From a virus (Duplodnaviria; Caudoviricetes): a stretch of DNA of 64,000 nt. The notes beneath the pieces were generated by a model. It was given only the letters and a program-made list of their open reading frames with translations. It made no database searches and was not told where the DNA came from. The first letter of the stretch is position 1; each line of letters begins with the position of its first letter. The stretch is from positions 50,552 to 114,551 of the IMG/VR virus record IMGVR_UViG_649989997_000001, one strand, 5' to 3'. Made by a program: the position numbers and the translations under genes. Positions 39,982 to 54,292 of the stretch are shown one piece after another.

Positions 39982-40167
39982 TCATACCTGCTCGTACCAC
40001 TTCGTCCCTGTCTCAGCAGCAAAGCCCGCCGCCTCCTCATCCGCTTTGGCGTAGGACAGCCCGTCGGAGAGTCGGTAGATCGCCTTTGCCGTGAGCGTCG
40101 GTGTGTCGAACTGAATGCTCTCCTGCTTCGAGTTGCCGCTCTCCGAGGGTTCGAGGAATTGGACTTT
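39982..40167 (-). pseudogene. Major tail protein, 3' fragment (separated by the satellite)
   Basis: KVQFLEPSESGNSKQESIQFDTPTLTAKAIYRLSDG...KWYEQV*; joins in frame to ...RYTKFY at 53879. Confidence 0.88.
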
Positions 40168-40231
40168 AGATAACTTCCCTTATGGATACCGCTTTCGCAA
40201 AAAATATGGCACATCCAGTCCGTAAAACCGA

Positions 40232-41908
40232 CTATGCCTGTTCGTTTTCCGCATCCAAAGTCCGAGCGTTGAACTCTCCAATGCAGTTCCACACGATGAC
40301 GATTTTCTGTGTGCGTTTGCCGTCCGCCACTTCCGGATGGAAGATGTACACCTTCTCGATGAACTCACGGACGATTTCTGAGGTAAGCTCCGGGATGTCC
40401 GTATACTTCCTGACGATGGAAAGGAAGCCGTTCACATTGGCTGCGGTTTCCGATTCCTTGGCGACCACAGCTTGCAATTCCTTCATCCGTGCAGTCAAGA
40501 CGCTCTGCTCATTCTCATAAGTGGCGGTCAGTTTGGTGAAACGCTCATCGGAAACCTTTCCGTCCACATTGTCCTCGTAAAGCCGCTGAATCAGCAGATC
40601 CAGTTTCCGCATACGCTTGCCTGCCTGTTCCATTTCCCGTTTGGCATCACGCAGAGCCTTGTCCGCCGCTTTTCTTGATTTCTTGACAATCAAGGTGATG
40701 AACTCGTCCTCATGCGCACGGGCAAAGTCTGTAACGCGCCGAATGGCATGAAGGAGAATCCCCTCGATTTTATTGATGCGGATCGTGTGGCTTCTGCCGT
40801 CGCAGAGTTTTTGCGCTTTCTTCCTGCGATAGTTGTCGCACACATAATGGTCGAGTTCCCTTCGACGATTGCCCTGCCGAACCGCTCCCATCTTTTCCTT
40901 GCAGTCCGCACAATAGAGAATCCCCGAAAGCATATCGGGAATACCGAGGAATGTCTTTTTCCGTCGTCCCTCACGAATGCGCTGCACAATATCGAAGGTC
41001 TCTTGGTCGATAATCGGCTCCTGCGTATTTTCAAAAATCACCCACTCCGAAGGATCGTTCAGATATACGCCTCTTGTGCGATAGGATTTTTTGTACGTCT
41101 TGAAATTGACCGTATGCCCCAAATAATCCGGGCGTCTTAAAATATCGGCCACATAAGTCGAACTCCACACAAAAGCGTTCGGCATGGCTTCCGCTTCCTG
41201 CCTTGAAATTTTCCCGTCCCTGACCTTGGCATGAAGAATCGGATTTAAAACCTTCTGCTCCCTGAGTTCCCGGGCAATCCATCCGGGACCAAATCCCTGC
41301 ATACACTTGCGGAACATAGCTTTCACCAAGGGAGCGGCAATTTCATCAGGAATCCAACGCTCCTTGTTTTGCGGGTCTTTCATGTAGCCATAAGGCGCCC
41401 GGTTTGCCATGTGCCGCCCGGATTCCCCCTTCGCCTTAAAAACAGCCTTGATTTTCTTGCTGGTGTCCTTGGCATACCATTCGTTGATGATATTGATGAA
41501 GGGCGTAAAATCGCTGTCCTGCTGATTGGCACTGTCCACGCCGTTGTTGACGGCAATGAAGCGTATGCCCGCATCCGGGAAAAACATCTCCGTATAATAG
41601 CCCACCCGGAGATAGTTGCGCCCCAAACGGCTCATGTCCTTCACGATGACCGTCCCTACTTGCCCGCGCTCCGCCTTTGCTATGAGTCGCTGCCAGTCGG
41701 GGCGGTCGAAATTCGTCCCGCTGTATCCGTCATCCACGAAGAACTCGCGATTCCGAAACCCGTTGTCAACAGCGTATTTTTCGAGGATGGCTTTCTGATT
41801 GCGGATGCTGTTGGAATCGCCCTGCATCTCATCGTCCCGCGAGAGACGGCAATACAAGGCTGTGATTTTTTCACCGTTCTCCACGGCAGTTTGTGATTGT
41901 CTGCCCAT
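40232..41908 (-). CDS. Large serine recombinase (TnpX-like, DUF4368 C-terminus) of the satellite
   Basis: [49 protein letters not shown] zinc ribbon. Confidence 0.93.
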
Positions 41909-41944
41909 GATATCCTCCTTTCCGACAATCTTCAAGTGGTACTT

Positions 41945-41975
41945 CATATTCCCGTACTGCTGTGAAGAAGTCAAG
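41945..41975 (-). promoter_or_regulatory. CTTG-N13-AGTACGGGAATATG box upstream of the satellite recombinase
   Basis: Matches 31556-31586. Confidence 0.55.
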
Positions 41976-41979
41976 CGGA

Positions 41980-42141
41980 TTACGGCGAAATCGCCGAATC
42001 TTTCGCTAAATCCTCCGCATCCCGCAGGATGAGTTTTTGCACCTTGTCCATTACGGTTTCCTTGGCCGTGTCGCTGATAATATCTTCTACAATATAGACG
42101 GTGTCCTGCGGATTGCGCTCTCTTGACTGTGTATTTGTCAT
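41980..42141 (-). CDS. TnpW-like small protein
   Basis: TVYIVE...[17 protein letters not shown], directly upstream of a TnpX-like recombinase. Confidence 0.65.
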
Positions 42142-42210
42142 TGCTTCCCCTCCCTTCCTTATTTGTGATAGCATCAAGGGTGTCACGTTTCGCTACGTCC
42201 TCTGACGACG

Positions 42211-52579: not shown

Positions 52580-52583
52580 ATCT

Positions 52584-52616
52584 GAAGGCACGGAGAAAAA
52601 ATCTTTCCGTGCCTTT
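52584..52616. terminator. Terminator between the convergent S subunit and DUF4314 genes
   Basis: AAGGCACGGA...TCCGTGCCTT. Confidence 0.7.
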
Positions 52617-52634
52617 CCTCAACTCCTCATCTTT

Positions 52635-52886
52635 TTACTGTTGATGGCTTGACTTTTTATTTGCAGCCTTCATACTTCGGAATTCGTCCACTTCAGGAAT
52701 AAGGCTTAGGGATGAGCCATTTTGCCAGCGCACCAAAATGCTTCCAGCATCGTCTACTCCCCAAACCGTCCCCAATGTCCCGGCAGGAGGCGCTTGGGTA
52801 TCTTCTATCGAGATAATCTCGACCACCGTCCCCGCGGGGTACTTTTTGCGGAACATTTCGATGTGTTCTTTACTGGGAAATTTCAT
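52635..52886 (-). CDS. DUF4314 protein (satellite copy)
   Basis: YPAGTVVE...APPAGTLGTVWGVDDAGSILVRWQNGSSLSLIP. Confidence 0.85.
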   Translation of the reverse strand: MKFPSKEHIEMFRKKYPAGTVVEIISIEDTQAPPAGTLGTVWGVDDAGSILVRWQNGSSLSLIPEVDEFRSMKAANKKSSHQQ

Positions 52887-53680
52887 TATAAGCAGTCTCC
52901 TTTGCGATGTCCGCATTTGAATGCACTGTTCCCCCAAAGATTCTGAAGGAGAATTTTCCGGGTGGTCTTATACTTATTTCCAATCAACCCCAATCGCAAA
53001 AGGAAGCAGCGGAATGCGTACTTGGGGTTGTCCACTTTCTTTTCTTTGGCAAGTACACGCTTCTGCCGCTGTGCCATATCGCACAGCTTGCTGATGAAAT
53101 CAGCGTAGGCACGATACGCCTCCGGCGTGAGTGTTCCGTGAAACCATGCGAAAGTAATCCGCTCCTCTGTCAGCGTATAGTTTACCTCCTCGATGTCGAA
53201 CGCCGCCTTGATGAGATTCCCTTTGCTTTTGAGCAAGGCATCTAAATTTGCCAATGCAGTGTCGGAGAAATTTTCCCTCGGCATACTGATAGAAAGATTG
53301 ACGATATCCTCCTGTGACTCAATGGGGGCAGATTCCTCCATGATGTGTTCCTCGACTGTCTGCGCCATCGCTTCAATCTCCGTAATCTGTGTACCCTCCT
53401 CCTGCAGAGTGTCCTTGGCCTCTTCCATACTGCTGTCAGTGAGAACATCCCCTTCGGACTGCTCTGCCATGAATCCTGCTGCTTCAATGGCTGCGAGGAC
53501 GTTTGCCGTCTGCTCATCCTTCTCGAAAATCAGCACGCCGTGCTTAGTGACCTCGTAACTGCCAATCTGAAAGGCAAAGCTCGGTGTCCCCATATACTTT
53601 GGTCTGATTCCCAAAGCATCTCCGATAGTCTTGACTAGGCGCTTGCGGTCTGCTCCGCTCACGTTGTAATTGCGTTCCAT
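52886..53680 (-). CDS. Phage 'virulence-related' family protein (satellite copy)
   Basis: RKRLV...PKYMGTPSFAF...NPKYAFRCFLLRLGLIG...RKILLQNL.GNSAFK; homolog of 62560-63309. Confidence 0.8.
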   Translation of the reverse strand: MERNYNVSGADRKRLVKTIGDALGIRPKYMGTPSFAFQIGSYEVTKHGVLIFEKDEQTANVLAAIEAAGFMAEQSEGDVLTDSSMEEAKDTLQEEGTQITEIEAMAQTVEEHIMEESAPIESQEDIVNLSISMPRENFSDTALANLDALLKSKGNLIKAAFDIEEVNYTLTEERITFAWFHGTLTPEAYRAYADFISKLCDMAQRQKRVLAKEKKVDNPKYAFRCFLLRLGLIGNKYKTTRKILLQNLWGNSAFKCGHRKGDCL

Positions 53681-53878
53681 GATGTTGTCCTCCTTTGTAA
53701 TGGTGTGGTTTTCCATGTCTATCTATCACTCGCCGAGGCAGAAATTGCAAGTACTTTTTGAGATATACTCTCATAAAGCAACGACCATGCAGGATTTTTG
53801 CATCCACATGGTCGTCTTCCTCTTGAAGATTGTCGATAAAACTACGTTGATTATGTATCCCTAAGAAAACTCATCTTT

Positions 53879-54292
53879 GTAGAATTTGGTGTATCTCTTC
53901 TTGCCGTTGCGCTTATCTGACTGAAAGAGCACGGCGAAGTACGGAGCGACATCGTCCTTGCCCGCCTTCATCACGCCGTTCTCGATACTGTGTCCCAAAA
54001 GATAGGCTGTGTATTCCAAAGGAAGCGCGGCAGTATCGAAGGTGAGGTCGTAGGATGCGGTATTCGATGCCGTATCTACGGACTGCCCGTCGGCGAAAAG
54101 CTCCGCCTGATTCGTCTGTGGCTTGATGTCCACCTTACGCAGAAGTTTTCCGAGCGGAATCGGAGCCTCGTAGGTCGCCGCTCCTCCTGCCACATCGGTG
54201 AGCATCTTCGCGATATGAAGTTTCTGGATGTTGATGAACTGCCCGCTCGTAAGATTTGCGGCGGGCTTTCCAGTTGGTGTTGGACTTGGCAT
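53879..54292 (-). pseudogene. Major tail protein (phi13-like), 5' fragment
   Basis: INIQKLHIAKM...ELFADG...YLLGH...APYFAVLFQSDKRNGKKRYTKFY; reads into the satellite to end DEFS*. Confidence 0.88.

Follow-up and report, generated by a model that had tools for sequence, protein, structure and literature searches.

A probable phage satellite with a large serine recombinase splits the major tail protein gene of its presumed helper prophage

The final 64 kb of a 114.5-kb virus-type record, IMG/VR record IMGVR_UViG_649989997_000001 (positions 50,552 to 114,551), carry a prophage whose major tail protein gene is split by a 13.7-kb insert. Our analyses of this 64,000-nucleotide stretch, hereafter the window, make it probable that the insert is a satellite resembling the phage-inducible chromosomal islands (PICIs), which was integrated by its own recombinase at a recurrent attachment site (attB) in the tail gene of its presumed helper (prophage B) and which would be packaged by that helper after excision. 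The two parts of the tail gene and the satellite lying between them are located as follows (window coordinates here and below, unless the contig is named).

40164-53878, minus strand: satellite, 13,707 bp of unique DNA plus AAAG at both junctions (53875-53878 and 40164-40167), delimited by junction alignments of occupied and empty sites
53879-54292, minus strand: major tail protein gene, 5' fragment (aa 1-138), matching phrog_88 and TIGR01603
39982-40167, minus strand: major tail protein gene, 3' fragment (aa 139-199), open up to its natural stop, matching phrog_88

The two fragments together account for one tail gene. In the PHROG profile search the 5' fragment covers positions 16-141 of phrog_88 ("major tail protein") and the 3' fragment covers positions 142-204. 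The 5' fragment also matches TIGR01603, the phi13-family major tail protein, over positions 3-120 of 190 (78.4 bits), and an intact homolog from a related prophage (L065) matches this model as a whole protein (positions 3-184 of 190; 114.6 bits, cutoff 35.2). Identity to the intact homologs is 99% for the 5' fragment and 97-100% for the 3' fragment, the latter differing from other copies mostly at synonymous positions, and fusion of the fragments at the common AAAG (CTTT on the plus strand) gives an open reading frame (ORF) of 600 nt encoding 199 aa without interruption. A preliminary description of this DNA had proposed such a split, with CTTT at both junctions and a 199-aa protein restored by removal of the insert, and the profile matches, the fused ORF and the empty sites described below all agree with it. 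The CTTT is indeed common to both ends but is not itself the crossover core, since the junctions of a second, chromosomal site confine the crossover to an AA dinucleotide (TT on the plus strand) within the AAAG of the tail site, where the exchange most likely takes place. In the integrated state, the tail 5' ORF runs to a stop at 53861, five codons within the insert, which supplies no substitute C-terminus or 3' end, and the tube protein is shortened by 61 residues. Because the satellite brings no replacement 3' end, production of the full-length tail tube protein would require excision. The gene stands in a late operon that reads, on the minus strand, TerL, portal, ClpP-like protease, HK97 capsid, adaptor, head closure, neck, tail completion and tail 5' fragment, and that continues past the tail 3' fragment with the tail chaperone and an 850-aa tape measure protein. 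When the reconstituted tail gene is compared with intact homologs, 34-48 codons differ synonymously and only 2-3 nonsynonymously, and at the five occupied sites compared (the window and L133-L136) the 3' fragments are open to the natural stop, with differences that are mainly synonymous. This pattern fits either a recent insertion or ongoing selection on a gene that is periodically restored. A long-dead pseudogene was also considered and does not fit the predominance of synonymous differences or the open 3' fragments.

The comparison of empty and occupied sites points to repeated use of this position. A scan of IMG/VR with the tail 5' fragment returned 72 loci, among which more than 30 related prophages (L061-L094; 94-99% identity) have the 5' and 3' parts of the tail gene directly adjoining, that is, an empty attB, and the parts likewise adjoin in the more distant loci. 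IMGVR_UViG_3300014025_000085 carries a 15.0-kb relative of the satellite at the exact same nucleotide of a tail gene whose protein is only 80% identical. The two satellites share 93-96% identity and the helper flanks 71-73%, with the break falling exactly at the junctions. Further occupied tail-gene sites (L134, L135, L136, L218/L226, L223 and L229) came from an exact search for the satellite right end in metagenome contigs and from exact look-ups of the recombinase and primase proteins, and the tail-gene junction together with the host gene is also present in the Logan assembly of SRR070367. Junctions and orientation are identical in all seven occupied tail-gene loci, which represent six helper backgrounds and in which the satellite ends are 97-100% identical and the helper flanks 73-98%. 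For example, the window and L218 share 100% identity over 1.8 kb of satellite and 85.7% over the adjoining helper DNA. Because near-identical satellites occupy the same nucleotide in six helper backgrounds, with identical junctions, the tail-gene position is a genuine, repeatedly used attB rather than the site of a chance insertion, and the site-specific targeting of the tail gene suggested in the preliminary description is sustained.

The same satellite also occurs outside prophages. A recombinase protein identical to that of the window is encoded on 23 or more public contigs, and in most public contigs with the identical recombinase or primase the satellite is flanked by a MatE gene on one side and an opp-like ABC transporter operon on the other (MatE|opp). 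The chromosomal copy is 99.985% identical to the window satellite, the two differing over 13.7 kb by a single substitution and a single homopolymer indel; the satellite has thus been mobile recently and is not obligately tied to its helper, which contradicts the permanent satellite-helper linkage envisaged in the preliminary description. Apart from the dinucleotide, the tail-gene attB and the chromosomal attB have little sequence in common. As expected for a serine recombinase, no long att repeats were found at the satellite ends, the internal repeat search giving only short repeats at chance level.

The existence of two sites makes it necessary to consider that the chromosomal MatE|opp position is the normal attB and that the tail-gene insertions are off-target, non-adaptive events that do no more than knock out the prophage and are dead ends for both partners. 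We regard this as unlikely, even though about 18 of the 22 contigs with an identical primase have the satellite at the chromosomal site and, on our reading of the junctions, the right half of that site is closer than the tail-gene site to the attP left arm in reverse complement. A further point in its favor is that relatives of the recombinase use chromosomal sites: those with 50-60% identity are flanked by housekeeping genes (ABC transporters, FBPase, topoisomerase IV, aminoacyl-tRNA synthetase), with no phage late genes beside them in the flanks examined, so that helper embedding would mark the present lineage and not the whole family. However, the flanks of the chromosomal site are 100% identical, with 0 differences over up to 5.4 kb, in contigs from several unrelated metagenome studies (L224, L225, L217, L219 and L221), which indicates a remarkably clonal and widely distributed host strain; because these flanks are identical at every base, all chromosomal-site contigs belong to a single clonal background and probably go back to one event. 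The tail-gene site, on the other hand, has been hit in the six helper backgrounds by at least three satellite variants, always at the same nucleotide, and the interrupted tail genes show no decay. In our reading, it is the tail gene that is targeted recurrently, and MatE|opp is an alternative or off-target site. The preliminary description had proposed that homologous elements at unrelated sites would mark the insertion as a matter of chance; such elements exist, both as the MatE|opp copy and as the relatives beside housekeeping genes, which speaks in part against its interpretation.

The gene content of the satellite, from the attR end to the attL end, is given below; E-values and bit scores are those of the profile matches named.

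40232-41974, minus strand: large serine recombinase at the attR end, reading toward the tail 3' fragment (Resolvase, Recombinase, Zn_ribbon_recom and DUF4368 domains)
41980-42186, minus strand: TnpW-like small protein (PF14202, 30.5 bits, cutoff 25)
42211-42303, plus strand: multi-block motif of about 85-93 bp, candidate cos/terminase recognition site, inverted with respect to the satellite genes, found by blastn to phage regions
42441-43376, minus strand: HK97-fold major capsid homolog without the N-terminal delta domain (PF05065, 1.8e-58; TIGR01554, positions 111-385 only)
43373-43705, minus strand: protein of about 110 aa with a C-terminal zinc ribbon, overlapping the capsid start (weak zinc-ribbon matches; conserved in the family)
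43783-44154, minus strand: 123-aa protein from public gene calls
44172-44335, no strand assigned: 164-bp repeat resembling a miniature inverted-repeat transposable element, with terminal inverted repeats and copies elsewhere in the window
44511-44555, no strand assigned: AT-rich short tandem repeats downstream of the primase, weak candidate origin (Tandem Repeats Finder (TRF) scores 41-44, 2.5-2.6 copies)
44744-47038, minus strand: primase-helicase of the P4/D5 type (NrS1-1_pol-like_HBD, D5_N, DUF5906, Pox_D5)
47071-47256, minus strand: excisionase-family helix-turn-helix (HTH) protein, AlpA/Xis-like, directly upstream of the primase (TIGR01764, 37.2 bits, cutoff 28.8)
47694-48827, plus strand: divergent gene of 377 aa, candidate regulator (377 aa called in L224-L230; conserved in the family)
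48814-52579, plus strand: restriction-modification (R-M) cargo, a fused nuclease-methyltransferase of 798 aa (HSDR_N_2, N6_Mtase, Eco57I) and a specificity subunit of 459 aa (Methylase_S)
52635-53716, minus strand: DUF4314 protein and amidoligase-like protein (PF14192; phrog_2443)

The recombinase, which is 558 aa long from 41908 in public gene calls, has the domains of a large serine recombinase (PF00239, 2.2e-24; PF07508, 9.8e-18; PF13408, 8.6e-12; and DUF4368), and TnpW adjoins it throughout the satellite family. The recombinase, TnpW, capsid and primase genes all lie on the strand of the tail gene. The primase-helicase matches TIGR01613 with 160 bits (cutoff 108.7), the excisionase-family protein matches PF12728 (HTH_17) on public gene calls, and the capsid homolog is 38% identical to residues 123-389 of the helper capsid. 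Pfam, PHROG and NCBIfam profile searches identified no terminase, portal, protease, tail or lysis genes among the satellite ORFs. In these respects the element has a PICI-like make-up, being 13.7 kb long (PICIs span 10-15 kb) with a recombinase at its attR end, a TIGR01613 primase with an excisionase-family HTH protein upstream, and neither lysis genes nor structural genes other than the capsid homolog; the full head module that defines the capsid-forming PICIs (cf-PICIs), with capsid, protease, portal, head-tail connectors and terminase, is absent, the capsid homolog being its only counterpart. These results agree with the preliminary description as regards the serine recombinase, TnpW, Xis, primase-helicase, capsid homolog and R-M genes and the absence of terminase, portal, protease and tail genes, whereas two other entries stand in part: the "iteron ori" corresponds to an AT-rich repeat that is present at 44511-44555 but is weak, with 2.6 copies, and the divergent regulator corresponds to a divergent gene whose candidate regulatory role is suggested by a feature-based lead, clustering with CGNR zinc-finger proteins (score 0.96-0.97, C-terminal), with no Pfam or PHROG match.

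In the window, an A-run (47961-47967) that is 1 bp shorter than in four other copies interrupts the candidate regulator gene at about 47968; these copies include an independent assembly (L229) that probably derives from the same isolate. A real derepressing mutation was considered as the cause of this frameshift and set aside because of its absence from the four other copies, a homopolymer assembly error being more likely. In L229 itself another single base pair is missing, within the R-M gene at about 49060, and homopolymer sequencing errors probably account for such differences. For the protein of about 110 aa the Atlas search returned hypothetical proteins only, and the 123-aa protein has no Pfam, PHROG or NCBIfam match. 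The 164-bp repeat has three further copies in the chromosomal DNA that separates the prophages (96% identity at 23873-24036, 84% at 26195-26361, and also 28382-28420) and as a 76%-identical copy in the second satellite examined. A promoter and terminator scan of the insert performed no better than on shuffled sequence, Rfam and tRNA scans of the window gave no match, and neither did megablast of the insert against the phage collection.

The satellite belongs to a larger family. More than 580 relatives of the recombinase were found among species-representative genomes, nearly all of them in Clostridia and none above about 60% identity, and the capsid homolog and primase adjoin the recombinase in 44 of the 51 genome loci with enough upstream DNA. 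The conserved core has the order candidate regulator, excisionase-family protein, P4-type primase-helicase, small zinc-ribbon protein, delta-less capsid, TnpW and recombinase, and the family is widespread in Clostridia. This core bears on the possibility that the element is an integrative mobilizable element of the Tn4451/Tn5397 type with phage-derived cargo, moved by conjugative mobilization or transformation. The likeness to these elements is real, in that the recombinase has their TnpX/TndX architecture with DUF4368 and is accompanied by a TnpW homolog, and in that two dissimilar targets are used with only a short core in common; TnpX/TndX elements insert into dissimilar targets around a short core. 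Elements of this type combine the recombinase with the Mob/relaxase TnpZ and an oriT, whereas profile searches detected no relaxase or Mob domain in any ORF of the satellite. The family-conserved core is instead of phage type (capsid homolog, P4-type primase and the motif described below), and the recurrent target is a phage late gene, which leaves mobilization of this kind a very improbable account of the element.

The motif at 42211-42303 provides a link between the satellite and phages of the helper type. It lies between the capsid gene and TnpW and matches window 454-546 and contig positions 2862-2954 with 75-78% identity (blastn, E=5e-12 and 3e-9). In prophage A, a relative of prophage B on the same contig, the same blocks stand 18 bp upstream of the small terminase gene terS (window 2-436, minus strand, phrog_83); about 30 distant relatives within the satellite family have these blocks, identically spaced, beside their capsid gene, and the same motif precedes an ATG in two phages of the helper group (L076 and L096). 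An RNA element was considered and dismissed, since RNAalifold predicted no conserved pairing in 29 copies, and because of this the motif would be a site at the DNA level. The most economical reading is that of a cos or terminase recognition site, which would tie the whole satellite family to phages of this type. The cos copy of the preliminary description is in this respect a real multi-block motif common to satellite and phages, with a putative role in packaging. As a separate observation, 30 of the 37 differences between the near-identical satellites of L226 and the window cluster in 0.8 kb (window 42067-42839) that cover the capsid 3' end, the terS-type motif and TnpW; this cluster looks like a recombination patch and possibly reflects adaptation to another helper.

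Next to this core the satellite has a cargo region that differs between variants. The R-M cargo of the window also gave MADS2- and MAD5-like matches, below cutoff, whereas the corresponding slot of the second satellite (L097, 1900-7700) holds an Abi_C protein, an HTH protein, an rve-type insertion sequence and a DNA methylase but no R-M system, and the slot appears to be a variable defense slot of the kind typical of satellites. The DUF4314 and amidoligase-like pair shows about 50-59% aa identity to two adjacent genes of helper-type phages (tblastn; window 62319-63309 and contig 46307-47312); the amidoligase-like gene of the second satellite is apparently frameshifted. The presence of defense genes in the cargo slot of both variants examined would be in line with an insertion that chiefly benefits the bacterium, by disarming the prophage through its tail gene and adding R-M or Abi functions, and that persists because a crippled prophage leaves the lysogen better off, and the tail-less prophage A on the same contig indicates that tail loss occurs in this phage group. 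We give little credence to such a benefit as the main explanation, since it leaves the conserved capsid, primase and packaging-like motif as well as the intact, constrained tail-gene fragments unexplained; it is, moreover, compatible with a helper-packaged satellite, and satellites commonly do both.

Taken as a satellite packaged by its helper, the element would behave as follows. Its recombinase has inserted it, always in the same orientation, at a single nucleotide of the phi13-family major tail gene of an HK97-like siphovirus prophage, and the same satellite has at least one chromosomal attB (MatE|opp intergenic). While embedded it truncates the tube protein, and precise excision would give the full-length protein again. 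Upon induction, the satellite would excise and the tube gene would be restored, the excised satellite would replicate through its own primase-helicase, and the helper terminase would package it through the terS-proximal motif common to the phages. Expression of the recombinase, or its directionality, might be set by TnpW, by the excisionase-family protein or by a helper factor of the kind used by the PLEs (PICI-like elements) of Vibrio cholerae. Related prophage records are 37-44 kb long, and judging from its size a composite with an extra 13.7 kb would probably exceed the head capacity; because of this, the helper may need the satellite out for packaging as well. That tail production is gated by excision is a sound inference, and excision, replication and packaging are predicted from the established behavior of serine integrases and of the helper-embedded PICIs discussed below; the cos function, the timing of excision and any effect on helper yield are likewise predicted. 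Several points weigh against the scheme as a whole. Embedding is evidently not obligatory, given that roughly 18 of the 22 contigs encoding this primase have the satellite in the chromosome, and prophage B runs off the contig end, which limits the view of its completeness. The dependence on the helper is suggested by the common motif and the 38%-identical capsid, the motif being a candidate packaging site, and a recombination directionality factor may or may not be needed for excision. Neither an attP circle nor a restored attB came to light for an occupied lineage; an exact search of viral contigs for the attP junction of the excised circle gave no match, which is no evidence against excision.

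The arrangement is not without precedent, and the suggestion of the preliminary description that it had not been described does not hold. Tommasini, Mageeney & Williams (2023, NAR Genom Bioinform 5:lqad036, PMC10111431) reported 491 helper-embedded PICIs (HE-PICIs) at 14 sites in cognates of lambda late genes of prophages, including a tail-tube site, V:Phage_TTP_13:49. In their induction experiments the composite excised and replicated before satellite excision (PMC10111431). The window satellite resembles the HE-PICIs in its primase, its AlpA/excisionase-like gene, the capsid homolog that often stands alone, a presumed shared cos and off-target chromosomal copies, as well as in the orientation of key satellite genes along the late gene (PMC10111431). 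On the other hand, HE-PICIs form one tyrosine-integrase clade with AlpA in Gram-negative bacteria with lambda-like helpers (PMC10111431), whereas the present element has a large serine recombinase with DUF4368 and TnpW, gut Clostridia as hosts and an HK97-like helper with a phi13-family tail protein, and its recombinase relatives show no general late-gene tropism. It is embedded in a helper late gene as HE-PICIs are but lies outside their integrase clade, and is best viewed as an analog and not as a member. A literature search, with incomplete coverage, found no serine-recombinase or Gram-positive counterpart of the HE-PICIs; the satellite-in-helper arrangement is already known in Gram-negatives, and the recombinase type and host group are apparently new.

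Comparison with other systems places the element between several known types. With classical PICIs and Staphylococcus aureus pathogenicity islands (SaPIs), including cos-type PICIs such as SaPIbov5 and EcCICFT073, it shares size, an end integrase, a divergent regulatory region, a primase-type replication module, the absence of most structural and lysis genes, a defense/accessory slot and possible use of the helper cos; it differs in its serine integrase, TnpW, the lack of terS and of a recognizable Stl-type repressor, and one att site within the helper, and its induction and packaging are predicted. The PLEs (McKitterick & Seed 2018, PMC6002521) are also phage satellites with a large serine recombinase. 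The phage provides their recombination directionality factor, a possible model for helper-triggered excision here. They differ in that they parasitize a lytic myovirus and integrate in chromosomal integron repeats, and they are not known to have any gene content in common with this satellite. The skin element in sigK and SPbeta in spsM are serine-recombinase elements that split a gene rebuilt by programmed excision, but there the gene is bacterial and excision serves host development, whereas here the split gene belongs to another mobile element.

On this basis we tentatively propose, with somewhat less than even confidence, a large, unnamed serine-recombinase satellite family in gut Clostridia with a delta-less capsid gene and a terS-proximal phage motif, one lineage of which convergently embeds in the tail-tube gene of its helper, placing tail production and packaging under an excision switch, with a chromosomal back-up site for helper-free cells. 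If embedding works as outlined, it arose at least twice, in Proteobacteria by way of tyrosine integrases and in Clostridia by way of a large serine recombinase, which would speak for a general satellite strategy and against a quirk of one integrase clade. The family is abundant in human-gut Clostridia and apparently unnamed in the literature found; to our knowledge, almost no satellites of these bacteria have been studied experimentally. The satellite-helper pair appears to be present in a cultured isolate (SRR070367 assembly), which makes the model directly testable, and the recombinase, for which two natural attB sites are defined and attP can be reconstructed, may be of interest as a serine integrase tool.

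The presumed helper and its late genes outside the split tail gene, assigned by PHROG and NCBIfam matches, are located as follows.

28484-64000, minus strand: prophage B, presumed helper, around the insert and ended by the contig end
36918-39470, minus strand: tape measure
39656-40000, minus strand: tail chaperone
54294-54656, minus strand: tail completion
55695-56870, minus strand: HK97 capsid of the helper
56886-57620, minus strand: ClpP-like protease
57571-58953, minus strand: portal
60036-61637, minus strand: TerL

Prophage B encodes two serine integrases, a holin, tail proteins and neck/connector proteins, and against the phage collection the helper region had a single megablast match, to the portal (72%, Coprococcus phage). 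Between portal and TerL, a low-GC stretch (about 36%) of 1.1 kb at 58953-60036 with one ORF of 108 aa is probably a moron or another insertion. Prophage A (about 35,600-63,500 of the full record; window 1 to about 13,300) is about 88% identical to prophage B and has its integrase pair and holin joined straight to the head-closure/neck region, the entire tail module missing, with the deletion joint near position 39,408 of the full record and a short common sequence at the joint; a tail-less, head-only relative is found in this way on the same contig as the tail-interrupted prophage B. The ends of the contig (first 754 bp against last 755 bp; 1-754 against 113,797-114,551, which is window 63,246-64,000) are 99.7% identical, and contig 1-4048 is 87-90% identical to the terS region of prophage A. 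Either prophage B wraps around here or a third related prophage is present, and the assembly may be unreliable there. Between the prophages lie genes for an 868-aa NACHT protein with a SNaCT14 C-terminal domain (13665-16271), NOD-like receptor (NLR)-like and possibly an anti-phage gene, and for a protein with a TNT (tuberculosis necrotizing toxin-like) domain (25439-26053).

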